Shown: in pieces, positions 8,446-58,303 of the stretch
Layout: every line of letters begins with the position of its first letter
Numbering within the stretch: position 1 is the first letter of the stretch
Source: an uncultured bacterium
GTDB lineage: Bacteria > Patescibacteriota > Minisyncoccia > Phycocordibacterales > Phycocordibacteraceae
Direction of reading: 5' to 3'
Assembly: GCA_947085505.1 (NCBI GenBank)
Contig: CAMTWI010000003.1
Coordinates: forward strand, 7,319 to 71,318
Length of the DNA stretch: 64,000 nucleotides
The notes under the pieces: model-generated
The model's database searches: none
What the model was told of the DNA's origin: nothing
What the model saw: only the letters and a program-made list of their open reading frames with translations
Program-made: the position numbers and the translations under genes

Positions 8446-8826
8446 TCAGAGCAGTTTTATTGGTCGGCTCCAGAGTCGACCATCGTTGCGCAGATGCGGA
8501 CAGGTAATGCCCTTTCGAATATCTGGATACTGCTTCGAAATACCATCCAGCACGAAAGCCTTGAGCGAAACAACGAAGGCGAGGAGAAGGGCTCGTGAAT
8601 GCCGCTCCTGCTTCGACAGTCCTTTTGCGTGCCCGACATCGTTGAGAAGTCGGGCGAGCACCATGCACTCAAGGAGTAGCCGCGGTGCCTTTTCAAGACT
8701 GAACTCATGAGGACGGGGCTCTGGAAACCCTTCCAGCATCAAATTGATCTGCTCATCCATGTCGCCAACCCACTCAGGGATTAGCTTATCTAGTGAAACC
8801 ATTCTTTCCTCCCACAATAAGAACAA
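8446..8826 (-). CDS. hypothetical protein
   Basis: ORF between recJ and rnhA. No recognisable motif. Confidence 0.3.
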   Translation of the reverse strand: MFLLWEERMVSLDKLIPEWVGDMDEQINLMLEGFPEPRPHEFSLEKAPRLLLECMVLARLLNDVGHAKGLSKQERHSRALLLAFVVSLKAFVLDGISKQYPDIRKGITCPHLRNDGRLWSRPIKLL

Positions 8827-22047: not shown

Positions 22048-22689
22048 TCAGGCCGCGATGGCCGTTGCGGACGCCAAGAGCAGATGGCTGAGCAGCTCCT
22101 TCAGCGAGTGTCGATACGATTCAGTCTTTCGGTTCATAATCGCGTGGTACCGACAGCGATCGAAGTGAATGCTCATGATGCATTCTCCAATTACCTTGGC
22201 TTCAAGCGCGTTCCCGCAGCGGGACTCCTTGAACATCGTCTCGATGGCTCTCCAGAGACGCTCTCGCCGATGGCCCGTGAGCTCGCGGGCTCTGCGATTC
22301 TTCATGTTTGACGCATCTGTCTCGAGGACGGCGAGCGCCTCGAGCAGGTGTAGCCGCTCGTTGAAGAATATGAAGTCGGCCGTACAGATTCTGACGATGC
22401 GATCCAGGACTGCACCTTCTTCTTCCGCATCCTGTTTGAGAAGCAGGCCATGTTCCTCGAACTCCTCTTGCACGATAACAAGCAAGAGATCTTTCTTGTC
22501 CTCGAAATTCGCAAACACGGCGCCGGTCGACATACCAGCCTTCTTCGCGATATCACGAATGGTGGCTTTCTCGTAGCCACCCTTCATGAAGAGCGTCCGG
22601 CCGGCGTCGAGCACCTTTTGGCGAGTCTGCAGCTTGGACTGCTGGCGCCTGTTGAGAGGCTTCGAGCCGGACTGATTTTGGTCACGCAT
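22048..22689 (-). CDS. TetR/AcrR family transcriptional regulator
   Basis: N-terminal HTH TIRDIAKKAGMSTGAVFANFEDKKDLL. The fold is all-alpha. Length 213 aa. Confidence 0.75.
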   Translation of the reverse strand: MRDQNQSGSKPLNRRQQSKLQTRQKVLDAGRTLFMKGGYEKATIRDIAKKAGMSTGAVFANFEDKKDLLLVIVQEEFEEHGLLLKQDAEEEGAVLDRIVRICTADFIFFNERLHLLEALAVLETDASNMKNRRARELTGHRRERLWRAIETMFKESRCGNALEAKVIGECIMSIHFDRCRYHAIMNRKTESYRHSLKELLSHLLLASATAIAA

Positions 22690-42272: not shown

Positions 42273-43055
42273 ATGCTCGCCAAGAAATCCCTCGGACAGA
42301 ACTTCCTCATGCATCGGCAGACAGCCGAACGTATCGTTGGTGCCGCACTCCTTCCGGAGGCAGCAAAGGTACTAGAAATTGGTCCCGGGACTGGGATGCT
42401 GACACGCGAGCTACTCAATGCCGGCATGCGTGTTATTGCCATTGAGGCCGACTATTCACTCATCCCAGAGCTCGAATCGACATTCGCGAACGAAGTAGAG
42501 GAGGGAACACTCACGCTTGAGAGCGCGGACATACGAAATTTTGATACCACCACCATCAAAGGTGCATACCATTTGGTTGCGAACATTCCGTACTACATAA
42601 CCGGCGAGATCATCCGGCAGTTCCTCACCGCTCCGAATCAGCCCGCATCTATGACGCTTCTCGTTCAAAAAGAGGTGGCGGTCCGTATCGCCCGCGAGAA
42701 GAAAGAAAGCCTTTTATCGCTGTCCGTAAAGGTATATGGACAGCCAAACTATTGCTTTACTGTGCCTCGTGGCGCCTTCAAGCCAGCGCCGAACGTTGAT
42801 TCGGCCGTCCTGCGCATTGGAAATATTAGTCGCACTGGATTTGCTGATGCTGCCGGGGAAGAGCGGTTCTTCGAGGTTATCCGCGCCGGATTCGCACACA
42901 AGCGAAAGCGTCTTGCGAAGAATCTCGAAGAGAAGTTCTCAAAGGAGATGGTTACGCACGCATTTAGTGTCGCCGCACTCGACGCAAATGTGCGCGCAGA
43001 AGACATCTCGCTTGAGACCTGGAAAGTGCTTACGAGAGAGCTGAAGTCTTCATAA
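42273..43055 (+). CDS. rsmA: 16S rRNA (adenine1518/1519-N6)-dimethyltransferase
   Basis: N-terminus SLGQNFLMH, SAM motif LEIGPGTGMLT, and conserved NIPY. Length 260 aa. Confidence 0.85.
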   Translation: MLAKKSLGQNFLMHRQTAERIVGAALLPEAAKVLEIGPGTGMLTRELLNAGMRVIAIEADYSLIPELESTFANEVEEGTLTLESADIRNFDTTTIKGAYHLVANIPYYITGEIIRQFLTAPNQPASMTLLVQKEVAVRIAREKKESLLSLSVKVYGQPNYCFTVPRGAFKPAPNVDSAVLRIGNISRTGFADAAGEERFFEVIRAGFAHKRKRLAKNLEEKFSKEMVTHAFSVAALDANVRAEDISLETWKVLTRELKSS

Positions 43056-43138: not shown

Positions 43139-44143
43139 ATGGCTCATTCTACCCGTACACTCCGCATCGCTGCCGCTTCGTTACTAGCCGTTCTCATGGT
43201 GGGAGGTACCTATCTCTCGACCGGACCAAACCCCTTCTTCGGCCTAACACGCATCGTTGGTGCGCAGTCTTCTGAAGAACTCCTGCGCGAATATGCTGCA
43301 AAGGATAGCGACAGTGACGGGCTACCTGATTGGCAGGAAGCGCTGTACGGGACTGATCCCTTTAACCCCGAGTCGTTTAGGGTAGGTATTCTTGATGGGG
43401 AAGCGGTTGCACAGGGACTTATTGAGCCGAGAGTTACCGTGCGCGCCGAAAAAGAACCCACCGACCCAAACTCTATCCCCGGCACTGCAGGTGCTCCATC
43501 CTCTCTCACCGACCGTTTCGCTCAAACACTCCTCAAACAGTATCTTTTGAATCGTACCGGCACCCCTCCGAGCCAGGAGGAGATTGTTGCATTTGTGCAG
43601 AAAGGGGTTGCGGAGCTTTCTGCAAGTGCTGTCGAGAGAGACCGTTACACGCTTAGTGATGTTCGTGTTTCGGGAGACTCGGGAAGCGCAGCTCTTATTG
43701 CATACGCAGCGGAGGCGGAGGCGGCTATTGCAGCAAACACCGTTTCGAGCTCCATAAGTGCGCGCAACGAGCTTTCCTACTTCCAGGATGCAATACGAGG
43801 AGACGATGCTGCGCTAGCGAAGGTTTCTGCCTACAGCAAGGCCTACGCGGCAATGGGTGACGCCCTTATTCGCCTCCCGGTGCCACAAGAAGTACGTCAG
43901 TCGCATCTCACCATCGTTAACGCAACCATGCACCTAAGTAGCATGACCGCTGATATGGCAACACTTAAAGAAGATCCACTTCGAGCACTCATGGGCATCG
44001 GTCTGTATGGGAAACATGCAACGAGTATGAAGTCTGGATTTGCGAACCTAAACGGCGTGTTTAGGGCGAGACAGGTTTCCTTAACTAAAGGACAGCCTGG
44101 ATACGAGATCTTTAACACAAGCGAGTTAGCTGCTGCCCAGTAA
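43139..44143 (+). CDS. membrane-anchored protein of unknown function, first gene of T4SS-like operon
   Basis: N-terminal TM. DSDSDGLPDW is a Ca-binding-like DxDxDG motif. The rest is mostly alpha-helical. Confidence 0.4.
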   Translation: MAHSTRTLRIAAASLLAVLMVGGTYLSTGPNPFFGLTRIVGAQSSEELLREYAAKDSDSDGLPDWQEALYGTDPFNPESFRVGILDGEAVAQGLIEPRVTVRAEKEPTDPNSIPGTAGAPSSLTDRFAQTLLKQYLLNRTGTPPSQEEIVAFVQKGVAELSASAVERDRYTLSDVRVSGDSGSAALIAYAAEAEAAIAANTVSSSISARNELSYFQDAIRGDDAALAKVSAYSKAYAAMGDALIRLPVPQEVRQSHLTIVNATMHLSSMTADMATLKEDPLRALMGIGLYGKHATSMKSGFANLNGVFRARQVSLTKGQPGYEIFNTSELAAAQ

Positions 44144-44144
44144 C

Positions 44145-45599
44145 ATGACAACCTTCCGAAATAAAGCTCCCCTGGCAACCCTGCTTCTCGGAAGCCTGCT
44201 TCTGGTTTCGTGTGTCGTCGCAGCTCCGCAGACGGCACGCGCCGCTGACTACGATAGTCCTCTCCAGGTATTTAACTCGCTCGTAACGTCGCTTAGTACC
44301 GCAGCAGATAGAACGCTCAACTACATACTAAACGGACTTGCATGGGATTTGGCAAACCTTGCCATTGAATCCATGACCAAGAGTACGGTTAACTGGATTA
44401 ATTCTGGATTCCAGGGGTCTCCAGCATTCGTTACGGATCTCAGACAGAATATGCGTGGTGTTGCTGACACGATTGCGGGCCGCTTCTTTGACGAACTTAG
44501 TGAGACAAATTTTGGAAGGTCTCCATTCCAGGATCGCGTACTTGACGCAGTCCGTCTTGGGTATTATCTGCGCACAAGTCCAGAATCGTTTTATGTCCGC
44601 TATCCATATACGTTAAACCAGGTTAGTGCAGACGACCGTGCCTTCCTTCGTGGGGATTTCAGCCAGGGAGGTTTCAATGCATGGTTTGCAACCGTGATGT
44701 ACCCAGAGAACAATCCGTACGGAATGAACATCCTTCTGAACGAACAGCTTGAAAACAGGATTGGAAGCGGTCTTTCCATCCGTAGCCAGGAACTCGACTG
44801 GAGCAGGGGCTTTCTGTCGTGGAGGGGGGACTGCATTGCCACCGCACCGAATTCTGGAGCAAACAACACCCCAGTTAATCTCACGAATGAAGAACCGTGT
44901 ATAGATTACGAAGTCCTCACGCCAGGATCTGTCATACAAGAGGGACTTAACAAAGCACTCGGCGCTGGCCAAGATCGTCTTGTTGTTGCAGATGACTTCA
45001 ATGAGATCATCAGCGCGCTTTTGAATCAGCTTGTGGGCCAGGTGCTCGGAGGGAACAGTTCGGGCGGACTTCGAGGAGTATCTCGTCCAGCAACCGGAGG
45101 AGGATCCTCGTTCCTTGATCGATCCACTGATCCAACACTCAACCCTGGAAACAGCGCGAACACTGGTACCGCGTTCGCTGCAACCATTGCAGAACAGCGT
45201 TCGATTCTTGAGAGACACCAGGCTAGCTGGGAGAGGATTAGGGGTGCAGCACAAGCGGCACTCTCACGCTGCGGACCTGGTGGAGAACCGAACCCGGAGG
45301 TCGTTGTCACCCGTGCACAAGACGCACTTGTTAAGGCAGCGAACGGCATCGCAGCGTACCGCGATCTTGAGGAGCGCATCGCTGCCACTATAGCTGCTGG
45401 TGGGAACCAGACCGCTGCCATAACGCAGATTGTGAACGACTTCACAGCGCTTGGTCGCTCTGCAATGGTTCCAACAAGCGAAGAGATAGCGGAGGCGCAG
45501 ATTCAGGCGCAGGATACAGGGGACATTCGACCGGGATCGCTCTATAGCCAGATGAGTCGCCAGGCTGCAGGCAGTTGCCTTGCCGGCTCGTCTGAATAA
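44145..45599 (+). CDS. secreted protein of unknown function (signal peptide) in T4SS-like operon
   Basis: Signal peptide ...SCVVAAPQTARA. 484 aa. No recognisable catalytic motif. Confidence 0.4.
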   Translation: MTTFRNKAPLATLLLGSLLLVSCVVAAPQTARAADYDSPLQVFNSLVTSLSTAADRTLNYILNGLAWDLANLAIESMTKSTVNWINSGFQGSPAFVTDLRQNMRGVADTIAGRFFDELSETNFGRSPFQDRVLDAVRLGYYLRTSPESFYVRYPYTLNQVSADDRAFLRGDFSQGGFNAWFATVMYPENNPYGMNILLNEQLENRIGSGLSIRSQELDWSRGFLSWRGDCIATAPNSGANNTPVNLTNEEPCIDYEVLTPGSVIQEGLNKALGAGQDRLVVADDFNEIISALLNQLVGQVLGGNSSGGLRGVSRPATGGGSSFLDRSTDPTLNPGNSANTGTAFAATIAEQRSILERHQASWERIRGAAQAALSRCGPGGEPNPEVVVTRAQDALVKAANGIAAYRDLEERIAATIAAGGNQTAAITQIVNDFTALGRSAMVPTSEEIAEAQIQAQDTGDIRPGSLYSQMSRQAAGSCLAGSSE

Positions 45600-45603
45600 T
45601 TAT

Positions 45604-48093
45604 ATGCGAAAGCTCTTCAGAGCATCGCTGTTGATCACCGTACTTTCGGTGTTGCTCTTTATTACTAGCTATTCACCTACCCAGGCCCAAACAACTCTTG
45701 AACAATGTGGCTCCGCAAGCCCACCGGCGGATTGTATTTCGTATGATCCAACAATTAATCCTGTCTTGGTTAGAGAGGGGGCGAGGTATTACCAAGACTG
45801 GGGAACAAGGAGCCCTTACCAAAGCGAAAACGATGGTCTCTGCAAAGTATATGTTTCGGGTCCTGTCTTTTTTGCAGGCTGTGTAAAAGATGGACGTTTT
45901 TCCATTCAAGCTGACTATGTTATAGGGGCCCCCACTGGGGGAGAGCCCGTAACGGGTGTGCAAGTTGATCAGTCTGGGGAAGTTACCTCGCAACCAATCG
46001 AAACCTGTGGGCCAATGAACATCGGTTGTTGGCTAATTAAACTACCCGGCATGCTCTTCACGGGCATTGCATTTGTTTTCTTGCTTCTCTCAGGAATGAT
46101 CCTCGGACTCGCGGGCACAGTGTTCAACTGGGTGGTCATACGTACGGTCTTCCAGTTCGGCACGTATTTCGGCACGAACGAAGGCATGCTTATTGCGTGG
46201 GGCGTGATGCGTGACATTGCAAACATAGGCCTCCTGTTTGGTTTCATATTTATGGGAGTGCTTCTTATACTCAACGTCGATAGTGGGGGACACGGGCACG
46301 GCGGGGGTGTGAGTGCGAAGAAAGCTATACCACGCCTCATCATCTTTGCGGTGCTTTTAAACTTTAGTCTCTTTGCTTCACAGGCGGTTATCGACGTCGC
46401 AAACGCATTTAGCTCAAGCTTTGCAACGCTTGCTGGAGAAAATTGTACTGGCAACACCTCGACAGGGAGCAGTGCCACTGACAGAGCCGCCGGCATGGAC
46501 AATGAGCAATGCTCTAATGTGGGCATATCTGGGCAGATACTAAAAGTGGCTGGTCTCACGTCAATTTGGGATTCAGAAAACAGAGATGTTCAAACTGCAA
46601 TGAAGAATCTTGTCGATCGGCCCTATAGCTATGCGGTGTCCTTGATGCTGCTTTCCATTTTTGTACTCATCACAGCCATGGTGTTACTTGCGGGTTCCAT
46701 CATGCTCATTATCCGTGTGGTTATTTTGTCGCTTCTTATGGTTACGTCGCCCATAGGCTTTGCCGGCATGGCCATACCGAAGCTGCAGGGCATTGCCAGT
46801 ATGTGGTGGAGCAAGCTGATGTCGCAGGCGTTCTTCGCTCCCGTATATCTTCTTCTTATATTTATCAGTATCAAATTAACTGAGGGCCTCATGGAGGGAG
46901 AGGCGACCCTCGCCAATGCACTCATTGCGAATCAAGGAAACTCGGTGGCAGGGAACATGCAGGTGGTTATGGTGTTCATGGTTGTTATCGGATTCATGAT
47001 TGGTTCCTTGCTCGTGGCATCAAAGATGGGGGCGATGGGGGCGAAGTTTGCGACATCGGCAGTCGCAGGAACAACCATTGGTTTTGCTGGTTTTGCCGGT
47101 CGAAGGACGCTCGGAGCAGCATCAGGGAATGTTGCTAAAAGAATTGCATCGTCGAACTACGCTCGTAGCAATGGGTTTGGAAGTAGGTTCGCCTATAACA
47201 TAGCCAACAAGGGTGCTACGGCGAGCTACAGCGCTCGTACTGGTATAAATAACATCACTAAGGGCGCTGGTCTCGACATTGGCAACGCAGGGAAGAATGT
47301 AAGCCATGGAATTCATGGTATTGAGGAGGCAGAGGTGAAAAAACGTAAGGACTTTGCTGAAAAAACCCTTGCGCAGACGCCTGCAGAACAGGCTGCGGAG
47401 AAGAGACTTAAGGATGAGAAGGATCGAATAAAGCTCTATAAAGAGGCGGCCAAGGAAGAGCTCGATCGTGGAAATGAGCCTGAAGAAAGTGCACTCAAGG
47501 CACAGAAGGAGAAGCACACTGAAGCGGCAGCAGCACGTCTAAAAGACCTTAACACCAAAAAGCAGGCTGTAGCAAAGCTTGAGGCTGACGGAGTTTGGGG
47601 TAATGAGCTCGATGAGCAAAAGAAGGCACTTGCTGCCCTAGAGGAGGAGCATGAACAAGCATCTGAGATTGAGGCAGCCGATATTGCGTCTCGTCAAAAG
47701 CGAATATCTGATCGTGGCGCTCGCTTCGATAAGATTCTAAAGGATTACGACAACCGATCGAAAGAAATCGACAGAACTATCAGTGGCTACGAGTCTATCG
47801 ATAGCAGTGGGGGCATTATGTGGAACAAGGGCCTTTCTAAAGAGTCAGCACAACGTGAGTATGGGGAAGCGCTTGGCAAAGACCATGGCATGCCTCTTAC
47901 ACTGGGACACCATATAAACCAAGAGGCTTCCGCAGACATCCTTAAGAAGCTTAAGCGCAGCAAGCGCGACAAGTTGGTTGATGCAATTAAGGAGAATGCC
48001 AAGGAGGACAAAGAGGAGGACGGCGGCGGCAAGAAGGAAGAGAAGTCCAGTGGAGGCGAAAAGAAAAGTGGAGGAGATGGGGGCCATCACTAG
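45604..48093 (+). CDS. VirB6/TrbL-like polytopic T4SS channel protein with Cys-rich N-terminal ectodomain and long K/E-rich C-terminal coiled-coil tail
   Basis: A signal peptide is followed by a Cys-containing domain of about 130 aa. Then 6 or more TM helices. Then about 330 aa of charged coiled coil, ending in a Gly/Lys-rich tail. Start trimmed to MRKLFRAS. Confidence 0.55.
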   Translation: MRKLFRASLLITVLSVLLFITSYSPTQAQTTLEQCGSASPPADCISYDPTINPVLVREGARYYQDWGTRSPYQSENDGLCKVYVSGPVFFAGCVKDGRFSIQADYVIGAPTGGEPVTGVQVDQSGEVTSQPIETCGPMNIGCWLIKLPGMLFTGIAFVFLLLSGMILGLAGTVFNWVVIRTVFQFGTYFGTNEGMLIAWGVMRDIANIGLLFGFIFMGVLLILNVDSGGHGHGGGVSAKKAIPRLIIFAVLLNFSLFASQAVIDVANAFSSSFATLAGENCTGNTSTGSSATDRAAGMDNEQCSNVGISGQILKVAGLTSIWDSENRDVQTAMKNLVDRPYSYAVSLMLLSIFVLITAMVLLAGSIMLIIRVVILSLLMVTSPIGFAGMAIPKLQGIASMWWSKLMSQAFFAPVYLLLIFISIKLTEGLMEGEATLANALIANQGNSVAGNMQVVMVFMVVIGFMIGSLLVASKMGAMGAKFATSAVAGTTIGFAGFAGRRTLGAASGNVAKRIASSNYARSNGFGSRFAYNIANKGATASYSARTGINNITKGAGLDIGNAGKNVSHGIHGIEEAEVKKRKDFAEKTLAQTPAEQAAEKRLKDEKDRIKLYKEAAKEELDRGNEPEESALKAQKEKHTEAAAARLKDLNTKKQAVAKLEADGVWGNELDEQKKALAALEEEHEQASEIEAADIASRQKRISDRGARFDKILKDYDNRSKEIDRTISGYESIDSSGGIMWNKGLSKESAQREYGEALGKDHGMPLTLGHHINQEASADILKKLKRSKRDKLVDAIKENAKEDKEEDGGGKKEEKSSGGEKKSGGDGGHH

Positions 48094-48105
48094 TACAATA
48101 CTGAA

Positions 48106-48909
48106 ATGAATCCCGAAGAAGATCTTGATGACGTTGAAATAAACCAGGCAGTGGGTGCTGCTATGCGTGACTTACCAAGGCCCGTACAGGACTTCCTAAA
48201 GAGCGATGAGCGCGATGCTGTTGCTCGTGAATTGTCTGCAAAATATCAACTCCATGTTGACCAAGCAGGGGAGTTCGAACGATCCTTCATTCTAATGCTC
48301 TTGGGCGTGATGCGTCCCGAGGAATTCGTTACAACCCTGACTCAAGCTGGGCTCTCGCAAGACATTGTTAACGGGCTGGCCGCGGATTTGAACACCCGCG
48401 TATTCATGAAGCTACGTGATGCTGAACGCGAGCAGGTGGCTGCCGTACCCCCAGCACCACAAAAGCCAGCTCCGATTCCGCCACCCGCCCTTGATTACCA
48501 ACCCGCAGCCACACCAACACTCCCTGGTTCCCCTGTACCCGCGCCGATGCCGCCTCCCATAGCTACCCAGGCGCCAGTAGTACTCGAGCCAACGCCTGCA
48601 CCAAGCCCCGTTCCGCAGCAGCACTTTGTACACGCAATGCCTGATGCGCACGCTCAAGCCGGGTGGCACCCAGCTGCGGCAGTACATATATTTGTACCGA
48701 CTCAACCAAACCACCATCCGCAGCCTGCACCTATGCAGACCGTCCCTAGCATCGAGCCCGCTCCTGAAGTAGAGCCCGTAGCTGCGCGAATCGAGACCCC
48801 GCCAGCTACAGTGCGTGAGCCGGAGATACTACCTTCACAGCCGACCCTACCATCTACACCACTTAAAAAGGAATTCAGTTCTGATCCGTATCGCGAACCT
48901 ATCCAGTAG
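48106..48909 (+). CDS. proline-rich protein of unknown function in T4SS-like operon
   Basis: An N-terminal globular domain of about 110 aa is followed by a PAP/PxP-rich tail. Confidence 0.35.
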   Translation: MNPEEDLDDVEINQAVGAAMRDLPRPVQDFLKSDERDAVARELSAKYQLHVDQAGEFERSFILMLLGVMRPEEFVTTLTQAGLSQDIVNGLAADLNTRVFMKLRDAEREQVAAVPPAPQKPAPIPPPALDYQPAATPTLPGSPVPAPMPPPIATQAPVVLEPTPAPSPVPQQHFVHAMPDAHAQAGWHPAAAVHIFVPTQPNHHPQPAPMQTVPSIEPAPEVEPVAARIETPPATVREPEILPSQPTLPSTPLKKEFSSDPYREPIQ

Positions 48910-48954
48910 AAAATAGTGCGAGTGCTCATTCAGTATCGGGTATACTGGATAGCA

Positions 48955-49362
48955 ATGGAGTATCAGGTACCACAGTTCATTGAGGTTGAGGACAAGATAT
49001 TCGGTCCGTTCACACTCAAGCAGTTTATTTATGTTGCAGGGGGCGTGGGTCTCTGCGCAATCGTACTCCTCTATCTTCCGCTCTGGCTCGGTATTATCAT
49101 CGCTCTTCCCGTTGGCGCACTCACCGCAGCGCTCGCATTCTATAAGATAAACAACAAGCCGTTTGTTGAAATCATGGAGGCAGCCTTCAACTATTACATC
49201 GGAGATCGTCTCTATCTTTGGAAGAAGGACAGGAACGCGGTAGTAGATGCACCAGTGGCAGTAAAGCCTGCAGACCCCGCAAAGCTTGGTCTAACACAGA
49301 GCAGACTCAAAGATCTTGCATGGTCGCTTGATATCAAGGACAACCAGAATAACGGCGCATAG
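48955..49362 (+). CDS. PrgI/VirB3-like small membrane protein
   Basis: About 135 aa. Two adjacent TM helices near the N-terminus (FIYVAGGVGLCAIVLLYLPLWLGIIIALPVGALTAALAF). It lies immediately upstream of VirB4, as PrgI does. Confidence 0.5.
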   Translation: MEYQVPQFIEVEDKIFGPFTLKQFIYVAGGVGLCAIVLLYLPLWLGIIIALPVGALTAALAFYKINNKPFVEIMEAAFNYYIGDRLYLWKKDRNAVVDAPVAVKPADPAKLGLTQSRLKDLAWSLDIKDNQNNGA

Positions 49363-49364
49363 AT

Positions 49365-49994
49365 ATGGCATCGACAAAGACAACACAATCGTTTGTGCCC
49401 GTGAAGGAAGTCCGTAACGGCGTGGTCGTACTTAAAAATGATGGGTACCGCGGCATTCTCATGTGCTCATCCATTAACTTCGCTCTTAAAGGGGAAGATG
49501 AGCAGCGTGCGATTATAGGCGGGTTCCAGAGCCTTTTGAATACTCTCGATTTTACGATTCAAATTGTTGTACATTCTCGGAAAACCGACATTCGGCCGTA
49601 CCTTGCCTTGCTTGAGACTCGTATGAAGGATCAAACAAGTGAACTCATGCGGCTACAGTTGCGCGAGTATATTGCGTTCATCAGGAACTTCATCGACTCG
49701 AGCGACATTATGACGAAGATGTTCTATGTGGTGGTGCCGTATTCGGCAGGTGGTGGTGGAGTTGGGAAAAGCACCCCCGCATTTCTTGGTGGAAGACCGG
49801 TACCCAAAGACAATGGCGGAGACGGGTTCGAAGAACACCGTGTGCAGCTCGAGCAGCGCATGTCACTTGTTGTGCAGGGACTCGCCTCAAGTGGTGTACG
49901 TGCGGTTCCGCTCGGGACTGAAGAGATAATTGAACTTCTGTACCGTTCGTTCAACCTTTCTGAGCTTGAGAATCCTATTCATCTTTCTGCATAA
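49365..49994 (+). CDS. VirB4/TrbE/PrgJ-type ATPase, N-terminal segment, terminated by in-frame TAA
   Basis: The sequence (FVPVKEVRNGVVVLKNDGYRGILMCSSINFALKGEDEQ...FTIQIVVHSRK) follows the VirB4 N-terminal pattern. It is in the same frame as the downstream ORF and is separated from it by TAA+TCT only. Confidence 0.6.
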   Translation: MASTKTTQSFVPVKEVRNGVVVLKNDGYRGILMCSSINFALKGEDEQRAIIGGFQSLLNTLDFTIQIVVHSRKTDIRPYLALLETRMKDQTSELMRLQLREYIAFIRNFIDSSDIMTKMFYVVVPYSAGGGGVGKSTPAFLGGRPVPKDNGGDGFEEHRVQLEQRMSLVVQGLASSGVRAVPLGTEEIIELLYRSFNLSELENPIHLSA

Positions 49995-49997
49995 TCT

Positions 49998-51821
49998 ATG
50001 GCACTCCTCGACTTCCTTGGAAAGAATAAGAAAGAAGACGCGCCCGCGATAACGCCGGTGCTGCCAAAGGACATTTATGCAGAAGGGGAGCTAAAGCTTG
50101 CGGATGCTATTGCGCCTGCGGCTCTTAAAGTGGGGGCCCGAGAGCTTGAACTCGGCGAGAAGGTGTCTCGCTCGTTCTATACCATTTCGTATCCACGATT
50201 CTTGGTTGATAGCTGGTTCACGCCAATTATCAATCTCGATAAGGTATTCGATGTATCGATCTTCATTCATCCGGTAGAGACGGGGTCTGCACTCCGCGGA
50301 TTCCAGAAAAAAGTGGCCGAAATTGAGAGTCAGATTTCTGATAGGGAAGAGAAGGGGTTGGTGCGTGACCCAATGCTCGATACCGCGTACCGCGACCTCG
50401 AGCAGCTCCGCGACCAGTTGCAGCAGGCTGAGGAACACATCTTTGAGGTAGGTCTTTACATCACCCTCTACGGAAACTCGAAAGAGGACCTCGACAAGAT
50501 TGAGGGTGATGTGCGCGGCATCCTCGACGCAAAGCTTGTCTACACAAAGCCTGCCTTGTTCCAGCAGGAACAAGGATTCCGTTCTACGTTGCCACTTGCT
50601 ACCGACGAACTCATGGTTACGAGCAAGCTCAACTCGTCACCGCTTTCTTCAATATTCCCATTCGTCTCCTTCGACCTTACGAGCGATCGCGGCATTCTCT
50701 ACGGCATCAATCGCCATAACGCGTCCTTGATCCTCTTTGATCGCTTCTCGCTTGAGAACTACAACTCGGTGGTGTTTGCAAAGTCTGGTTCCGGAAAGTC
50801 CTACGCAGTGAAGCTCGAAATTCTTCGCTCTCTCATGTTTGGGTCGGATGTTATTGTCATCGACCCTGAGCGCGAATACGAGAACCTCGCGTCTGCAACT
50901 GGGGGACGCACCTTTAACATCTCGCTCTCCTCTGAACATCACATCAATCCGTTTGATCTTCCGCCCGTTAAAGAGGACGAGGAGCCGTCCGACATTCTTC
51001 GTTCAAACATCATTAACCTTGTTGGTCTCTTCCGCATCATGCTTGGGGGACTAACCCCTGAGGAGGATGCGATTGTTGATCGCGCTATTACAGAGACCTA
51101 TGCCCTTAAAGACATTACGGGTGATGCGGACTTCACGGGTGTAGAGCCACCACTTCTTTCAGACTTTGAGAACGTCCTTTCAGGGATGGAGGGCTCGGAA
51201 TCCCTTGTTATACGCCTTTCCAAGTACACGCACGGCACCTGGGCGGGATTCATAAATCAACCAACCAACATCGATATCAACAAGCAGTTCATTGTGTTCT
51301 CGGTGCGCGATATGGAGGACGAGTTGAAGCCGGTAGCGATGTACATCATTACGCACTTCATCTGGAACGCGGTGCGACACGAGCTCAAGAAGCGCCTTCT
51401 CGTCATCGACGAGGCCTGGTGGATGATGAAGTCGGAAGATACAGCGTCTTTCCTCTACAGCGTCGCGAAGCGCGGACGTAAGTACTATCTCGGTGTCGCG
51501 ACCATAACCCAGGATGTGGAGGACTTCTTGAAGAGCCCGTATGGTCGACCAATCCTCACAAACTCCTCAATGCAACTTTTGTTGAAGCAGTCTCCAACAA
51601 CAATCAATGTGCTTAAAGAGACTTTCAACCTAACCGATGAGGAGAAGTTCTTGCTCCTTGAGTCAGGTGTGGGGGAGGGACTCTTCTTTGCAGGACTTAA
51701 GCACGTCGCGATTAAGATCGTTGCTTCCTATACTGAAGACCAAATCATAACCTCAGACCCGTCGCAGCTTCTCCAGATCAGGCAGGAAAAGGCAAGGAAC
51801 GACGCAGGGCTCGTAGCCTAG
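49998..51821 (+). CDS. VirB4/TrbE/PrgJ-type T4SS ATPase, ATPase segment
   Basis: Walker A FAKSGSGKSY and Walker B LVIDEAWWMM. Conserved ATITQ near the C-terminus. Confidence 0.85.
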   Translation: MALLDFLGKNKKEDAPAITPVLPKDIYAEGELKLADAIAPAALKVGARELELGEKVSRSFYTISYPRFLVDSWFTPIINLDKVFDVSIFIHPVETGSALRGFQKKVAEIESQISDREEKGLVRDPMLDTAYRDLEQLRDQLQQAEEHIFEVGLYITLYGNSKEDLDKIEGDVRGILDAKLVYTKPALFQQEQGFRSTLPLATDELMVTSKLNSSPLSSIFPFVSFDLTSDRGILYGINRHNASLILFDRFSLENYNSVVFAKSGSGKSYAVKLEILRSLMFGSDVIVIDPEREYENLASATGGRTFNISLSSEHHINPFDLPPVKEDEEPSDILRSNIINLVGLFRIMLGGLTPEEDAIVDRAITETYALKDITGDADFTGVEPPLLSDFENVLSGMEGSESLVIRLSKYTHGTWAGFINQPTNIDINKQFIVFSVRDMEDELKPVAMYIITHFIWNAVRHELKKRLLVIDEAWWMMKSEDTASFLYSVAKRGRKYYLGVATITQDVEDFLKSPYGRPILTNSSMQLLLKQSPTTINVLKETFNLTDEEKFLLLESGVGEGLFFAGLKHVAIKIVASYTEDQIITSDPSQLLQIRQEKARNDAGLVA

Positions 51822-51824
51822 CGT

Positions 51825-52328
51825 ATGGAAAAGAAGCATAAGATAGGAAATGTAACGGCCGGCATGATGATCGTGACGGCACTTATTGTTGATGCGGTCC
51901 AGGCATTGCTTACGTTCTCTGTTTTCCTTCTTCCTCTCTCTGTTCTTATAACGTTTATGGCAGCGACGATGTTCTTTCTCTGGTTTGCACTGTCCGGTGT
52001 GAAGTATGTGGGGAGTGGTGGAGGAAAGAAGCTTCTTATCGCACTTGCCTCAACAGTTGCTGAGCTCGTGCCGGTAGTTAATGTCATCCCCGCAACGACA
52101 GCAGGTGTTATTGGTATCATCGTTCAGACTCGTATTGAGGATGCTCGGGCACAAGCAGGAGGGAAAGTCACACCGCGCACAGCTATGGCTTCGGCGAGAC
52201 TACAAAAAATGAATCAGGCACGGGCTGCACGGGAAGACAGCGCCCGTGAAGGAAGAGAAGGAGCCCAACAGGCACGACACACCCCCGCAAATGACACTTC
52301 TGCCCACAATACTAGCGAAGCCGCATAA
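51825..52328 (+). CDS. small polytopic membrane protein (possible VirB2/TrbC-like or accessory)
   Basis: Three hydrophobic helices, then a charged tail. Confidence 0.35.
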   Translation: MEKKHKIGNVTAGMMIVTALIVDAVQALLTFSVFLLPLSVLITFMAATMFFLWFALSGVKYVGSGGGKKLLIALASTVAELVPVVNVIPATTAGVIGIIVQTRIEDARAQAGGKVTPRTAMASARLQKMNQARAAREDSAREGREGAQQARHTPANDTSAHNTSEAA

Positions 52329-52375
52329 GATACCCCCGCGTAGGCACGCGCTCCCACACCGCTTCGGTATATACT

Positions 52376-53368
52376 ATGTATATGATACGCGTTGTGCTTC
52401 TCGCTTTTGTCTTCGCCGGCTCCTTTCTTGGCGTCTCGCATGCTCAAGGTATTCCAAACAGCACCGAGCCGCTTACGCTATCGGTATCTCCTGAATATCC
52501 TCGTCCTTACCAAACCGTTACTGTCTCCCCCCGAAGTAGTCTTCTTGACCTCTCGGCGAGTACGGTACGGATATCGGTTAATGGAACTACTGTCTATGAA
52601 GGAAGTGGCACCCAGGCTACAAGTGTGCGAGCAGGGGGCCTTGGAGAGCGCACAACCATAACGGTGTCGGTTACGGATCCTTCTGGCCGTGTCTATACCA
52701 AACAGCAAGTCTTGCGACCGGCAGAGGTGTCCTTGGTGCTTGAACCGGCATCAACCATGCACCCGTTCTACCAGGGAGGGGGACTCGTTGCATCAGAGGG
52801 GCGTGTGCGTCTTGTGGCGCTTGCTGATCTGCGCAGTGCACCAGGAACTCGTCTCCCAAGCTCAAGCCTCGTCTATACCTGGCGACTTGGAAGCCGTGTA
52901 CTAACGGACATGTCGGGTATAGGAAAGTCCACGCTCCTCGCAACCGCACCGGTTCGATACCGCAATGCCGATATCTCTGTTACGGTTACGAGCCCGGACA
53001 ACACACTCGTTGGCGAGGCACGCACACTTGTATCAGCGGTCGATCCTGTGGCGCGTATATATAGGAACGACCCGCTCCTTGGCCCTAACTTTGATGTCGC
53101 TCTCACCGATCGCTTCTCGATGCCTGACACTGAGACAACCTTCCGCGCTGTTGGATACTTCTTTGCCGTGCCACCAACATTTTCGTGGACGGTTAACAAA
53201 GCAACCAATGGAACTGACAAAGACATAACTGTGCGCGCAACTGGAAACGGGCAGGGTACCGCACGGATCGGCCTTACAGCGACCGAAGTCGCTGCCAGAC
53301 GCAGTGCGGATACTGCGGTTACTGTAGACTTCGGACGATCTACTGGCTTTGGCTTCTTTGGCCTATAA
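52376..53368 (+). CDS. secreted beta-rich protein of unknown function (signal peptide ...SHA|Q)
   Basis: Signal peptide MYMIRVVLLAFVFAGSFLGVSHAQ. Ser/Thr/Val-rich. Confidence 0.4.
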   Translation: MYMIRVVLLAFVFAGSFLGVSHAQGIPNSTEPLTLSVSPEYPRPYQTVTVSPRSSLLDLSASTVRISVNGTTVYEGSGTQATSVRAGGLGERTTITVSVTDPSGRVYTKQQVLRPAEVSLVLEPASTMHPFYQGGGLVASEGRVRLVALADLRSAPGTRLPSSSLVYTWRLGSRVLTDMSGIGKSTLLATAPVRYRNADISVTVTSPDNTLVGEARTLVSAVDPVARIYRNDPLLGPNFDVALTDRFSMPDTETTFRAVGYFFAVPPTFSWTVNKATNGTDKDITVRATGNGQGTARIGLTATEVAARRSADTAVTVDFGRSTGFGFFGL

Positions 53369-53372
53369 CCCT

Positions 53373-54383
53373 ATGAAATATCTCACTTTTCTCATACTTT
53401 TCCTCGGCCTTCCACTGCTCGCGTTTGCGCAGACGACAACCGGAGCCGTAAACACGGACACCAGTTTTGTTCCACTCACGAACATTCCGTTCCTTACCGA
53501 AACAGGAAACTCCTTCAGTCTTGATTCGTTTTTAAACGGGCTTTATCGCATAAGTATCGGTATCGCTGCTGTTGTTGCGGTCCTTCAGATCATGCGCGCG
53601 GGCATTATGTATATGGGCAGCGATAGTGGATTCGCTGAGAAAAAAGAGGCGAAGAATCTTATAGCACTCTCGATAGGCGGCCTTATTCTTGTGCTTTCAC
53701 CGGTGGTTGTGTTCTCCGTTATTAATCCTGAGATTCTTAATCTTAAGATAGGGAATATCGAGAAACTTAAACCCATTGAGTCTGCTGAACCTCGTAGAGT
53801 AATTGAGGTTGCGTCGGCAAGTGACTGTAGAGAGCAAGGAGGCGTAGTTGAGTCACAGGGACCACCAGTAACCTGTTCTGTACCAGCGGATTCTGATGCG
53901 GGCCGAGAAGCGACTTCCTGTGCCACCTTTAACAATCCTCCTGAGTCTCCAATTATTGTGGGCGGGAATTGTGCACTCGAGCTTAGTGAAAGTTACGTAA
54001 GAATTGATAATGCCTGTTGCGCCGGTATTCAGCAGGGAAATATTTGCTGTGGAAAAAGCGAAAGCTCAGGTGAGCAAGCGCCACGCGTCTTCCTTGATCA
54101 GCCGCTCATCTACTACAGCTATCAAGAGTACGACCGTGTAGAAAATAAAGGTAGGTTTGTTGGTGTGGTTCCGAACCATGCCGCGAGGGTTACTAGTTTT
54201 AGAAATGCTTGCACTGCAGCGGGCAGAGAAGTAGAGACAGATCGTGACGATAACTGGGCTGAGCGTTTTATCCTGGCTCGATGGGGAAGCTGTCCAGGGG
54301 ACACAGGTGTTCCTGCTAGTACAGGAAACACGAACACAGAGTATCAGTGTGAAGATAGAAGAGCTGTCTGTAAGACGAATTAA
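53373..54383 (+). CDS. VirB2/TrbC pilin-like N-terminal module fused to Cys-rich C-terminal domain
   Basis: A signal peptide is followed by two closely spaced hydrophobic helices (LYRISIGIAAVVAVLQIMRAGIMYM / LIALSIGGLILVLSPVVVF), as in T4SS pilins. The last ~200 aa contain about 17 Cys, including CC pairs. Confidence 0.4.
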   Translation: MKYLTFLILFLGLPLLAFAQTTTGAVNTDTSFVPLTNIPFLTETGNSFSLDSFLNGLYRISIGIAAVVAVLQIMRAGIMYMGSDSGFAEKKEAKNLIALSIGGLILVLSPVVVFSVINPEILNLKIGNIEKLKPIESAEPRRVIEVASASDCREQGGVVESQGPPVTCSVPADSDAGREATSCATFNNPPESPIIVGGNCALELSESYVRIDNACCAGIQQGNICCGKSESSGEQAPRVFLDQPLIYYSYQEYDRVENKGRFVGVVPNHAARVTSFRNACTAAGREVETDRDDNWAERFILARWGSCPGDTGVPASTGNTNTEYQCEDRRAVCKTN

Positions 54384-55603
54384 TGCAGCCTATGAACCGC
54401 CGCATCCTCATCATTGTCGCCAGCATCGTAGTTGTACTCGGCCTGCTTGTTGGTGCGTACTTCCTCTTCTTTAACAACCCGACTCTCTCGGTTGGAGTAC
54501 CAAGTAACCCCTTCGGTTCGAGTGGGAATCGCACAGAAACCGAACTTCTCAGTCCAGACGGGCAACCCACTCGAGGGGCTGGGACAGTTGTGGCACCCCG
54601 TCTTATACGTATTAGCGACGCACCTGTCGCCAAGGGCGCTGTAGCACTTTATATCCCGCCAGTACCTGCAGCGACTTCTACAGAGCCTGGTATACCTGCT
54701 GATACTGAGATTCGCTTCATAGAGCGCCAGAGCGGGAACATCTACGCATTCAGGGTCCATGATCGTGTGCTTACCCGTATTTCAAACCGCACACTTCCGG
54801 GTATACAGGAAGCAGCTTGGACCACAGACGGCGGTCGTGCATTCGTTCGCTACCTAACACGATCAACTGATGGTACAGAGCGTGTTGATACCTACATGCT
54901 CCCAGCTGATGGTGGAGAAGGGTACTTCCTTGAGCAGGATCTCGAGCAGGTTGCTGTACGAGCCACAAGCACGGTGTTCTCACTCCTTCCGAGCACGTCT
55001 GGATCCATTGGGTCTTTGTCTTCTCCAGACGGAACAAACGTACGAACACTCTTTACGTCAGCGCTTTCACGACTACGTGCAGGATTCTCTGGTGCAAACA
55101 TTGTTGCAACCACCAAAGCCTCGAGCGGGCTTGATGGATATTCGTTCCTTGTGGACGGCGGGTCATTCACGCGCATCCTGGGGCCCCTCAGGGGACTTGC
55201 AACCCTTCCAAACCAAGAAGGGACATCAGTCCTCTACAGCCATGTAGATGCCAATCGCACCTACCTGCAAGTACTTGACCTCGCAACAAGAAACGCAACG
55301 GCACTTCCGCTCGTTACGCTCGTAGAGAAATGCGTGTGGGAACCAGGAGGCAGGGCAGTGTATTGCGGTGTACCAACCGCACTCGCAGGCAACGTTCCAG
55401 ACGAATGGTATCAAGGCGCTAAAACATTCTCTGACCGCATCTGGCGCATCGATTTAGATACCCGTCTCGCAACACTTGTCGTTGACCCAGGACAAGTGGC
55501 AAATGTGGCCATTGACGCGATTGCGCTCACAATTGATTCGAAGGGTGATGTCCTTGTCTTTACAAACAAGAAAGACGGCACGCTCTGGGTATACGACCTT
55601 TAA
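54383..55603 (+). CDS. N-terminally anchored extracytoplasmic protein of unknown function, last gene of T4SS-like operon
   Basis: Single N-terminal TM. The ectodomain is beta-rich. Its start overlaps the upstream stop (TAATG). Confidence 0.4.
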   Translation: MQPMNRRILIIVASIVVVLGLLVGAYFLFFNNPTLSVGVPSNPFGSSGNRTETELLSPDGQPTRGAGTVVAPRLIRISDAPVAKGAVALYIPPVPAATSTEPGIPADTEIRFIERQSGNIYAFRVHDRVLTRISNRTLPGIQEAAWTTDGGRAFVRYLTRSTDGTERVDTYMLPADGGEGYFLEQDLEQVAVRATSTVFSLLPSTSGSIGSLSSPDGTNVRTLFTSALSRLRAGFSGANIVATTKASSGLDGYSFLVDGGSFTRILGPLRGLATLPNQEGTSVLYSHVDANRTYLQVLDLATRNATALPLVTLVEKCVWEPGGRAVYCGVPTALAGNVPDEWYQGAKTFSDRIWRIDLDTRLATLVVDPGQVANVAIDAIALTIDSKGDVLVFTNKKDGTLWVYDL

Positions 55604-56953: not shown

Positions 56954-58303
56954 ATGAATAGACTTGATGCGCGGGAACTCTGGGAATACACCCTCACGCA
57001 GGTGGAGCTCTCCATTTCTCCCGCTAACTTCAACACCTGGTTCCGCGACAGCTCGATAGTAAAGATTGAAGAGGGGATTGTATACATTGGCGTTCCGAGC
57101 CAGTTCTTCCGTGATTGGTACTTAAAGAAGTTCAATATGCTTCTTCTGAAAATCATTCGCGGGGTCTCTCACGAGTACCGAAATATCGAGTACATGATCG
57201 TAAAAGACGATCGCCGACGTCCCAAGGAACCTCGCCATAAGCCACAGCAAACGGTTGAGATGCCGCTCGACGAGTTCTATATAAACAAGAGCGACGGCCT
57301 AAATCCTCGGTATACCTTCGATACGTTCGTCGTTGGTTCCTTCAACGAACTCGCGCACACTGCCGCTCAGGCCGCTCTGAAGCGCCCAGGAATCATGTAT
57401 AACCCTCTGTTTATCTACGGAGACACCGGAAGAGGGAAGACACACTTGATCCAGGCTATCGGGAACCAGTTCAAGAAGCTCTATCCAGGGCGAAAAGTGT
57501 ACTACTTAACAGCAGAAACCTTCGGCCAGGACTATACAAACTCTATCCAAGCTGGAAATACCAACCGTTTCAAAGAAAAGTACCGCCAGTACGATCTGTT
57601 GATCATGGACGACATCCAGTTCTTCTCGAAGAAGGATAAAACACAGGAAGAACTGTTCCATCTCTTCAACGCCCTCTACGACAACAACAAACAGATCCTA
57701 TTCTCCTCTGATAGGGCACCAGCAGCGATCCCTGATATCGCAGACAGGCTCCGCGGCCGCTTTGCTGCCGGTATGTCAATTGATATTGGAGAACCAGACA
57801 CTGAAAGCCGCATGGCTATCGTCCGAAAAAAAGCGGCATCACACGGCGTCTATCTCTCGGACGAGGTTATCGAGCACATTGCGACCTCTATCTCAGGTTC
57901 AATTCGCGAGCTAGAAGGGGTCATCAACAGCGTGGTCTGTCATACCCAAGTGAAAGGTGTTCCACCAGACCTCGCAGAAGTTCGTCATTCGCTCCGCTCC
58001 TTTGCACGTCCGCAGAAAACAGTCTCTGTGAAGCATGTGGTGTCTAAGGTTGCTGAGTTCTACGGCATTGATGAGGAGAGTATCTATGAGAAGACTCGTA
58101 GAAGGGAAGTAGTGCGTCCTCGACAAGTAATCATGTATCTACTCAGAGAGGACTTCAACGCCTCGTACCCAACCATAGGGTCAAAGCTTGGTGGCAGGGA
58201 CCACACAACCGTCATTCATTCATGCGAGAAGGTAAAGCGAGAAATAATAGTTGACCCAGACCTTGCAAAAGAGATCCAAGATATTAGAAGTCTGTTGGTA
58301 TAG
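56954..58303 (+). CDS. dnaA: chromosomal replication initiator DnaA
   Basis: Walker A GDTGRGKTHL, the AAA+ sensor motifs, and the C-terminal DNA-binding domain. Length 449 aa. Confidence 0.95.
   Translation: MNRLDARELWEYTLTQVELSISPANFNTWFRDSSIVKIEEGIVYIGVPSQFFRDWYLKKFNMLLLKIIRGVSHEYRNIEYMIVKDDRRRPKEPRHKPQQTVEMPLDEFYINKSDGLNPRYTFDTFVVGSFNELAHTAAQAALKRPGIMYNPLFIYGDTGRGKTHLIQAIGNQFKKLYPGRKVYYLTAETFGQDYTNSIQAGNTNRFKEKYRQYDLLIMDDIQFFSKKDKTQEELFHLFNALYDNNKQILFSSDRAPAAIPDIADRLRGRFAAGMSIDIGEPDTESRMAIVRKKAASHGVYLSDEVIEHIATSISGSIRELEGVINSVVCHTQVKGVPPDLAEVRHSLRSFARPQKTVSVKHVVSKVAEFYGIDEESIYEKTRRREVVRPRQVIMYLLREDFNASYPTIGSKLGGRDHTTVIHSCEKVKREIIVDPDLAKEIQDIRSLLV

Follow-up and report, generated by a model that had tools for sequence, protein, structure and literature searches.

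Two adjacent genes very probably encode a split VirB4 in a chromosomal T4SS of a Patescibacterium

The window considered here, i.e., the whole stretch of 64,000 nucleotides that was analysed, carries two open reading frames (ORFs) of a T4SS locus which are parted by a stop codon and a very short spacer. The first gene (49365..49994, forward strand) starts with ATG, ends with TAA and encodes a soluble protein of 209 aa that is TrsD-like, or 'TraC-like' by the Pfam name attached to its homologues (PF26593). The second gene (49998..51821, forward strand) runs from ATG to TAG and encodes the 607-aa core of a VirB4-family T4SS ATPase. On the same strand, the TAA stop codon occupies 49992..49994 and is followed by an intergenic spacer of 3 nt, TCT (49995..49997). 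Positions 49980-50003 read CAT CTT TCT GCA TAA TCT ATG GCA and encode H L S A, stop, S M A, and both ORFs lie in one common frame of 209 + 1 + 607 = 817 codons. The initial annotation had described exactly this succession of TAA, TCT and ATG between two same-frame ORFs, and the sequence bears it out.

Directly upstream of the TrsD-like gene, at a gap of 2 nt, lies the gene of a PrgI/VirB3-like small membrane protein of 148 aa (48916..49362, forward strand), which matches the Pfam family PF12666 (PrgI; E=7.5e-10; 39.7 bits, cut-off 27). Its residues 33-78 form a single long hydrophobic stretch. PrgI also takes this place in a fused locus of Colwellbacteria (L082), as does trsC in pSK41, and the protein is expected to be the membrane anchor partner of VirB4. 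In addition, the neighbourhood comprises a polytopic VirB6-like membrane protein (45580-48093) and a weak T4SS_pilin match (53349-54383); pilin-like genes as well as ksgA and dnaA are located near the cluster, and neither a relaxase nor a coupling protein was noticed adjoining it. This context fits a chromosomal, origin-proximal T4SS of Patescibacteria.

The 607-aa protein is a VirB4/TraC-family T4SS ATPase. It harbors the Walker A (AKSGSGKS, residues 261-268, nt 50778-50801) and Walker B motifs (LLVIDE, residues 467-472, nt 51396-51413) that had already been assigned to the second ORF, reaches 368.8 bits against NCBIfam NF045971 (VirB4-like conjugal transfer ATPase, CD1110 family; cut-off 325) and matches the Pfam families P-loop_TraG (E=1.5e-24), AAA_10 (E=1.4e-11) and DUF87. 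Moreover, its residues 231-586 match the C-terminal domain of VirB4 from T. pseudethanolicus (PDB 4AG5, E=4.8e-46), and TrwK is recovered with E=2.7e-7. The chain comprises the remainder of the N-terminal domain at approximately residues 30-230, followed by the RecA-like ATPase domain at approximately residues 231-586. A complete canonical VirB4 N-terminal domain is not present on this chain, the match to the CD1110 profile extending over positions 183-733 of 752.

The beginning of the same profile is found on the other chain: positions 2-104 of 752 are matched by the 209-aa protein, in agreement with the VirB4 N-terminal pattern that had been proposed for the first ORF. Likewise, the proposal that the ORFs jointly make up a VirB4 of 817 codons is supported by the two profile segments and by the collinearity of both window proteins with single-chain relatives of 797 aa. 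One could object that the 209-aa protein is an unrelated accessory and that the 607-aa protein is a complete short VirB4, like the VirB4 of about 600 aa from Thermoanaerobacter, so that nothing is split. The 607-aa protein indeed carries about 230 residues N-terminal to its ATPase domain and, taken alone, scores above the VirB4 family cut-off. Furthermore, a Pfam scan of the 209-aa protein gave no family at E<=0.01 with the copy used, from which the PF26593 model was apparently absent, and a PDB sequence search with the family profile of this protein (hereafter the N-part) gave no match even at E<=10. Nevertheless, this objection is very unlikely to hold, since 40/40 members of the N-part family match three VirB4-family profiles at their N-terminal positions, since the N-part is fused to the ATPase in the same order in more than 100 proteins of Ca. 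Colwellbacteria (single-chain VirB4 of 775-807 aa), and since the second chain spans just the later portion of the CD1110 profile. The fold comparison points in the same direction: with AF2 models of a mean pLDDT of 68-69, i.e., of moderate confidence only, the best structural match of the N-part model was R388 TrwK/VirB4, and the model of a fused relative superposes on TrwK over 656 residues. The 209-aa protein is therefore a remote homologue of the VirB4 N-terminal portion and constitutes a stand-alone form of the N-terminal subdomain of approximately 200 residues.

Concerning the name of this protein, a precomputed match to PF26593 exists for all 120 listed homologues, which share at most 96% identity with it. 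With the Pfam copy used, the window protein gave a single match at E<=10, to AEP1, which was rejected as spurious. Against NCBIfam NF041427 (TrsD/TraD) the window protein scored 17.8 bits (E=0.0023), short of the cut-off of 200 bits, and the same model matched 19 of 40 relatives at E<=0.01, with 2.7e-4 as the best value. An hhalign comparison of the N-part family profile with the single TrsD sequence of pSK41 was not significant (E=0.095); the link to TrsD hence rests on the NCBIfam profile matches, on synteny and on the common break point described below. The 209-aa protein is a remote TrsD homologue and, by the NCBI threshold, not a member of NF041427.

For the in-frame TAA the initial annotation had offered four explanations, of which a two-polypeptide VirB4 restarting at the adjacent ATG stood, and a pseudogene, an error and stop-codon readthrough did not. 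The comparison of orthologous loci that had been suggested as a check was carried out on the window together with 80 species-representative genomes of Patescibacteria. The split occurs at the same site in 80/80 related genomes, with N-part identities from 100% down to approximately 61%: throughout the set, the first ORF of about 205-220 aa ends in a stop, and the ATPase gene opens with the conserved start ATG-GCN-CTN-CTN-GAT-TTC (MALLDF) of an ORF of about 603-615 aa. A consistent split of this kind had been named beforehand as the sign of a genuine two-gene arrangement. Six loci whose spacers are long or which contain internal stops (L014, L018, L031, L045, L070 and L076) turned out to be ordinary two-gene loci upon motif-anchored and manual examination. 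Hence, the TAA is a genuine, conserved gene end, and the split is ancient and conserved.

These observations bear directly on the notion of a recent nonsense mutation, according to which virB4 would be a pseudogene and the T4SS non-functional. Single-chain relatives of approximately 790 aa exist in Colwellbacteria, which makes a contiguous gene a possible ancestral state, and the window ORFs have a common frame. On the contrary, the presence of the stop in every related species, the conserved ATG and N-terminus behind it and the different frames of the two ORFs in 38/80 scored loci speak against it, as does the selection acting on both genes. Synonymous sites are near saturation (pS 0.58-0.86), and pN amounts to 0.02-0.21 for the N-part and to 0.006-0.11 for the ATPase, or C-part. 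Where estimable, dN/dS for the C-part is 0.006-0.04; for the N-part it is approximately 0.02-0.04 in closer pairs and 0.11 in one pair that is distant and close to saturation (L015). Purifying selection on both ORFs is strong, and a recent pseudogene is next to inconceivable.

An equally negligible probability attaches to a sequencing or assembly error as the source of a spurious TAA. The window apparently stems from a metagenome-assembled genome (MAG), a 100% identical locus (L001) being on a MAG contig, and single-base errors do occur in MAGs, but the same stop and a protein of 208-214 aa recur in independent assemblies from many studies and sequencing sources (NCBI, JGI, ENA and Logan). For instance, a locus from a separate study (L002), at 96% protein identity, shows TAA, the spacer CCT and then ATG. 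The homologue survey also speaks for two genes. There are 3287 stand-alone homologues of the N-part, the best 120 of which measure 208-214 aa, and among the best 150 representatives of 50%-identity clusters only one is a long fused protein; the best 120 homologues of the C-part are all stand-alone, at 590-613 aa and 86-100% identity. In some lineages the stand-alone TrsD-like proteins bear low-complexity, proline/glutamine-rich C-terminal tails of 100-230 residues (e.g., P0290, P0321, P0343 and P0350).

Programmed readthrough or a reassignment of TAA would yield a full-length VirB4 of approximately 817 aa, either besides or in place of the two proteins. This possibility has to be weighed against the junctions themselves, which were scored in 80 rows (the window and 79 loci, L045 being examined separately). 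The frame offset is 0, +1 and +2 in 42, 18 and 20 loci, respectively; TAA follows the first ORF in 64 rows, TAG in 14 and TGA in 2; and the spacer ranges from 1 to 102 nt, with 3 nt in 34 loci and 1 nt and 2 nt in 13 loci each, and reaches 142 nt in L045. In-frame junctions are somewhat more frequent than the expected third (42/80 versus 27, a count that is not corrected for phylogeny), which could be taken as a hint of readthrough. However, this excess is probably due to the 3-nt spacer common to close relatives: without the 13 closest loci that have it, 29/67 junctions are in frame versus 22 expected, which is not convincing given the relatedness of the loci. Since all three offsets occur, the in-frame state in the window is incidental. 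Moreover, frames that differ in almost half of the loci, the use of all three stop codons and the variable spacers are at odds with readthrough.

The window itself offers further arguments of this kind. An identical in-frame 3-nt junction separates three other, unrelated pairs of genes on the same strand, at 7948/7952, 15847/15851 and 51821/51825; at the third of these, the ATPase gene adjoins the next gene downstream. Neighbouring genes in the operons of the window typically lie 1-3 nt apart, and an in-frame state is therefore a chance outcome at about one third of such junctions. In E. coli, TAA followed by T is the most efficient termination signal, which was likewise counted against readthrough. 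A reassignment of TAA was rejected, because this codon terminates 27 of the 60 long ORFs in the window. Altogether, a readthrough product is very improbable. A Shine-Dalgarno motif was sought upstream of the ATG at 49998 and not found; this is uninformative, since such a motif is present at few genes of the window.

The arrangement is thus very probably that of two real, separately translated genes of a chromosomal T4SS, which together specify a split VirB4 predicted to be functional. The host would be a Paceibacteria-type Patescibacterium, with both genes forming part of its chromosomal T4SS. The product of the first gene would correspond to the first 200 or so residues of canonical VirB4, and that of the second gene to the rest, i.e., the later part of the N-terminal domain and the Walker A/B ATPase domain. 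Both polypeptides probably associate non-covalently and thereby rebuild the VirB4 N-terminal domain. In addition, the succession of PrgI(VirB3), TrsD-like protein and VirB4 at gaps of 2-3 nt probably permits translationally coupled synthesis and co-assembly.

Beyond this, the split is perhaps not neutral: the detached VirB4 N-terminal subdomain might serve the Patescibacteria T4SS as an adaptor or assembly factor whose dose is set independently, a tentative idea that is rather doubtful at present. It is allowed by the break point shared with TrsD/TrsE of the pSK41/pGO1 type, by the joined form in Colwellbacteria and by the tailed stand-alone TrsD-like proteins. If it were true, the pairs of fission and fusion forms would constitute a natural experiment defining the role of TrsD.

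As regards annotation, two real and conserved genes mean that the T4SS locus is intact and not degraded. It should be scored as such, the virB4 region should not be called a pseudogene, and the ORFs should neither be merged nor flagged as a disrupted gene. For the upstream ORF, TrsD-like/TraC-like (VirB4 N-terminal-like) protein is a more suitable name than "hypothetical".

Among known systems, the staphylococcal conjugative plasmid pSK41 provides a two-gene counterpart outside the phylum. Its order trsC, trsD (227 aa) and trsE (672 aa) parallels PrgI, 209-aa ORF and ATPase in the window, and in pSK41/pGO1 as well as here the gene of a soluble protein of about 200-230 aa lies between those of a small membrane protein and of a VirB4-like ATPase of about 610-670 aa. 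Residue 2 of pSK41 TrsE aligns with residue 3 of the window ATPase (E=9e-39), and since both proteins align from their N-termini, they share a common break point, the TrsD/TrsE boundary. In contrast, the spacer measures 14 nt in pSK41 and 3 nt in the window, and pSK41 is a plasmid that also encodes a relaxase and a coupling protein, whereas the window locus is chromosomal. TraD-TraE of pIP501-type plasmids is presumably of the same kind as TrsD-TrsE, going by the NCBIfam family name.

The single-chain VirB4 proteins, namely those of the CD1110 family from ICEs of monoderms, of Mycoplasma ICEs, of R388 (TrwK, PDB 7O41/7O42) and of Colwellbacteria, have the domain content and order of the concatenated window proteins. 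They differ in that the N-terminal subdomain is covalently attached, whereas it is a separate polypeptide in the window; moreover, the MALLDFLGKNKK… segment at the start of the window's ATPase is missing from the fused forms. In R388, it is through the N-terminal domain of VirB4 that the ATPase docks to VirB3 and VirB8 at the membrane.

The nearest likeness is found within the phylum. According to Quiñonero-Coronel et al. (2025, Microb Genom, PMC12102498), no other T4SS component found in Patescibacteria is as abundant as the TrsD homologues, which number 2272 and mostly adjoin virB4. The same study describes a remote homology between TrsD and the N-terminus of VirB4 and lists the TrsD homologue of Ca. 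Southlakia epibionticum among the essential genes. The whole T4SS of this organism, at locus SEML1_0006-0019, was found to be essential (Wang et al. 2023, PMC10633639). The published pairs share with the window the order VirB3/PrgI-like, TrsD-like, virB4, and the published loci and the present one are alike chromosomal and near dnaA and ksgA, with neither a relaxase nor a coupling protein noticed beside the cluster and nothing substantive different. The accessible part of PMC12102498 contains no discussion of frame relation and spacer, and no mention of the single-chain TrsD-VirB4 of Colwellbacteria was found there, 'fused' denoting VirB3-VirB4 only. A TrsD homologue beside virB4 across Patescibacteria is already published, the present locus is one more member, and the apparent stop inside VirB4 is hence ordinary. 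The T4SS to which the window locus belongs occurs widely in Patescibacteria and is required for epibiotic growth in the only organism in which this was tested; its TrsD-like component is conserved and reportedly essential. What is added here, namely the break point common with TrsE of pSK41, the variation of spacer and frame, and the Colwellbacteria fusions, refines the published picture without changing it.

Positions 49980-50015 of the window read CAT CTT TCT GCA TAA TCT ATG GCA CTC CTC GAC TTC (H L S A stop S M A L L D F), where a TrsD-like ORF of 209 aa (49365-49994) is followed in the same frame, after TAA and one further codon, by an ATPase ORF of 607 aa (49998-51821), which contains the Walker A (AKSGSGKS, 50778-50801) and Walker B (LLVIDE, 51396-51413) motifs. 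The initial annotation had thus described the ORFs, their common frame, the intervening codons and both motifs accurately. In a greedy map of non-overlapping ORFs, gaps of 1-3 nt are typical for consecutive same-strand genes in the operons of the window, and the arrangement of stop, 3 nt and in-frame ATG recurs at three further same-strand pairs (7948/7952, 15847/15851 and 51821/51825), the last being formed by the ATPase gene and its downstream neighbor. Hence, the 49994/49998 junction is statistically unremarkable in the window. A Shine-Dalgarno motif was not found before the ATG at 49998, and few genes of the window possess one.

Readthrough of the stop, one of the explanations raised initially, is already disfavored by the TAA-T context, which constitutes a strong bacterial terminator. 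As for stop codon usage in general, 31 of the 60 non-overlapping ORFs that reach 90 aa in the window (~51% GC) end in TAG, 27 in TAA and two in TGA; TGA is strongly avoided, the two exceptions (8446-8826 and 22048-22689) both residing on the minus strand. Signs of TGA acting as a sense codon were not apparent in the window, where coding density looks normal under code 11.

A search with the 209-aa protein yielded 3287 homologues, the best 120 of which all comprise 208-214 aa at 96% down to 69% identity and derive from numerous, mutually independent Paceibacterota/Patescibacteria assemblies (NCBI, JGI, ENA and Logan). By means of a profile of 40 homologues, 80 loci were retrieved from species-representative genomes, including L001, a Ca. 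Paceibacterota MAG contig from which the window probably stems and whose TrsD-like protein is 100% identical to that of the window; the window and 79 of these loci make up the 80 scored rows, while one locus, L045, was handled separately. In every locus a stop terminates the N-terminal ORF (TAA 64, TAG 14 and TGA 2 in the scored rows), and a conserved ATG, encoding M-A-L-L-D-F, opens the ATPase ORF. Spacers of 1 nt and of 2 nt occur 13 times each and the 3-nt spacer 34 times, while 17 spacers measure 4-19 nt and four 55-142 nt (scored rows plus L045). Compared with the TrsD-like ORF, the ATPase ORF lies in frame 0 in 42, +1 in 18 and +2 in 20 of the scored rows. The unusually long spacers belong to loci L014, L031, L045 and L070, those of L031 and L045 holding an ORF of 37-44 codons that starts with MSM. 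The two TGA-terminated TrsD-like genes are found in L057 and L070. At L069 (4630-6012) the ATPase ORF encodes only 460 aa, which may reflect a truncation or frameshift in that MAG.

This pattern of stop, spacer and frame is incompatible with a recent nonsense mutation, since the stop is present in every related locus with varied spacer and frame, and equally with a sequencing or assembly error, which would not account for a stop in every related locus. Conserved readthrough is likewise rejected, because the frames vary, TAA, TAG and TGA are all used and spacers span 1-142 nt. The comparison of orthologous loci that had been proposed initially revealed the split throughout 80 related loci.

In a Nei-Gojobori comparison of the window with 14 relatives, synonymous differences were near saturation (pS 0.58-0.86) and non-synonymous ones few. 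Where estimable, dN/dS lay at 0.006-0.04 for the ATPase ORF; for the 209-aa ORF it was ~0.02-0.04 among the closer pairs and reached 0.11 with the distant relative L015. Low dN/dS at near-saturated synonymous sites indicates that both ORFs are maintained as coding genes. Together with the stop and conserved ATG restart in every related locus, this establishes the genuine two-gene arrangement, the third of the explanations considered initially, as the correct one.

The 607-aa protein matches the Pfam families P-loop_TraG, AAA_10 and DUF87 and scores 368.8 bits against NCBIfam NF045971 (CD1110-family VirB4-like ATPase; curated cut-off 325), covering only profile positions 183-733 of 752. Its residues 231-586 align with 4AG5 (E=4.8e-46), a crystal structure of the C-terminal domain of VirB4 from T. 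pseudethanolicus. A scan with the local copy of Pfam assigned the 209-aa protein to no family; precomputed matches to PF26593, named "TraC-like", are listed for its homologues, and the protein itself aligns with N-terminal positions 101-233/894 of the full-length VirB4 model NF045975 (E=1.9e-8) and 2-104/752 of NF045971 (E=4.7e-5). All 40 profile members match both VirB4 models, and 19 of the 40 match the NCBIfam TrsD/TraD model, to which the window protein aligns with E=0.0023. Membrane segments were predicted in neither protein. The small protein is homologous to the VirB4 N-terminal subdomain, while the large one comprises the rest of the N-terminal domain and the ATPase.

An exhaustive profile search with the TrsD-like family over 1.84 billion cluster representatives gave 2959 matches. 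Nearly all of the best 150 comprise 115-443 aa, the inspected ones of 300-443 aa having long low-complexity C-terminal tails; the one long protein, P0332, has 797 aa. The 209-aa protein (residues 7-202) aligns with P0332 8-213 (41% identity, E=6e-48) and the 607-aa protein (30-598) with P0332 226-795 (58% identity). Among the matches listed, more than 110 single-chain proteins of 775-807 aa share 59-100% identity with P0332 and carry PF26593, PF11130 (TraC_F_IV) and ATPase domains; where a source is named, the annotation is mostly Candidatus Colwellbacteria. Owing to this collinearity, the two ORFs together represent one VirB4 in an evolutionary and structural sense, as initially proposed, which is encoded as two polypeptides in the window but as one chain in Ca. 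Colwellbacteria. In one Colwellbacteria locus (L082, 3453-5852), the fused gene directly follows PrgI, with dnaA nearby. In other Patescibacteria lineages, stand-alone TrsD-like proteins (P0290, P0321, P0343, P0350 and P0255) bear low-complexity C-terminal tails of 100-230 residues, enriched in Pro, Gln, Ala and Thr, which suggests that the detached domain gained lineage-specific extensions.

The two conserved genes, first TrsD-like and then VirB4, follow a VirB3-like gene in close succession. Their products would associate into a VirB4-like protomer, the N-terminal domain of which, by analogy with the R388 structure, could contact VirB3 and the tails of VirB8 at the cytoplasmic membrane. Spacers of 1-6 nt, which separate the genes in 69 of 80 scored loci, would favor translational coupling and near-equimolar synthesis.

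The T4SS cluster (~43139-55603) is flanked by housekeeping genes, with UvrD helicase (40364-42271) and KsgA/RsmA methyltransferase (42273-43055) upstream; on the downstream side, DnaA (56954-58303) lies at a distance of ~1.3 kb and precedes a class A PBP (60365-62572). It includes a polytopic VirB6-like candidate of 837 aa (45580-48093) with at least seven hydrophobic segments and a signal-like N-terminus, as well as PrgI (48916-49362). Downstream of virB4 (51825-55603) reside small hydrophobic or pilin-like proteins: one of 167 aa has three hydrophobic segments, and of several secreted or membrane proteins one gives a weak T4SS_pilin match (53349-54383, E=0.009); Pfam and NCBIfam provided no confident family assignment for the 45580-48093 and 51825-55603 proteins. 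The flanking genes match the origin-proximal location, often near dnaA, dnaN, ksgA, rnpA and rpmH, that is described for Patescibacteria T4SS by Quiñonero-Coronel et al. 2025 (PMC12102498). According to the same study, TrsD outnumbers all other T4SS components recovered in Patescibacteria (2272 homologues, 1664 of them virB4-associated), and the Ca. Southlakia epibionticum homologue is listed as essential. The T4SS of this organism is essential for epibiotic growth and resembles Gram-positive conjugative systems, but pilins are present while relaxase and coupling protein are lacking (Wang et al. 2023, PMC10633639). The window fits this published picture.

A precedent is provided by the S. aureus plasmid pSK41 (NC_005024), in which trsC and trsD (227 aa, annotated "TrsD/TraD family conjugative transfer protein") precede a 672-aa DUF87 ATPase, TrsE. 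The window ATPase aligns with TrsE (E=9e-39) from residue 3 versus residue 2 (LLDFLGKNKKE vs IMAFLKKKKQE), and since both align from their N-termini, the two systems are cut at the same place. The 209-aa family matches pSK41 TrsD weakly by hhalign (E=0.095); the window protein is accordingly termed TrsD-like, not a TrsD member by the NCBI threshold. Features that may be absent from the literature are that spacer and frame vary at the junction, that TrsE has an identical break point, that Colwellbacteria possess a covalently fused form and that TrsD-like proteins of other lineages bear long disordered tails; the two-gene arrangement itself is already described for Patescibacteria and pGO1/pSK41-type plasmids.
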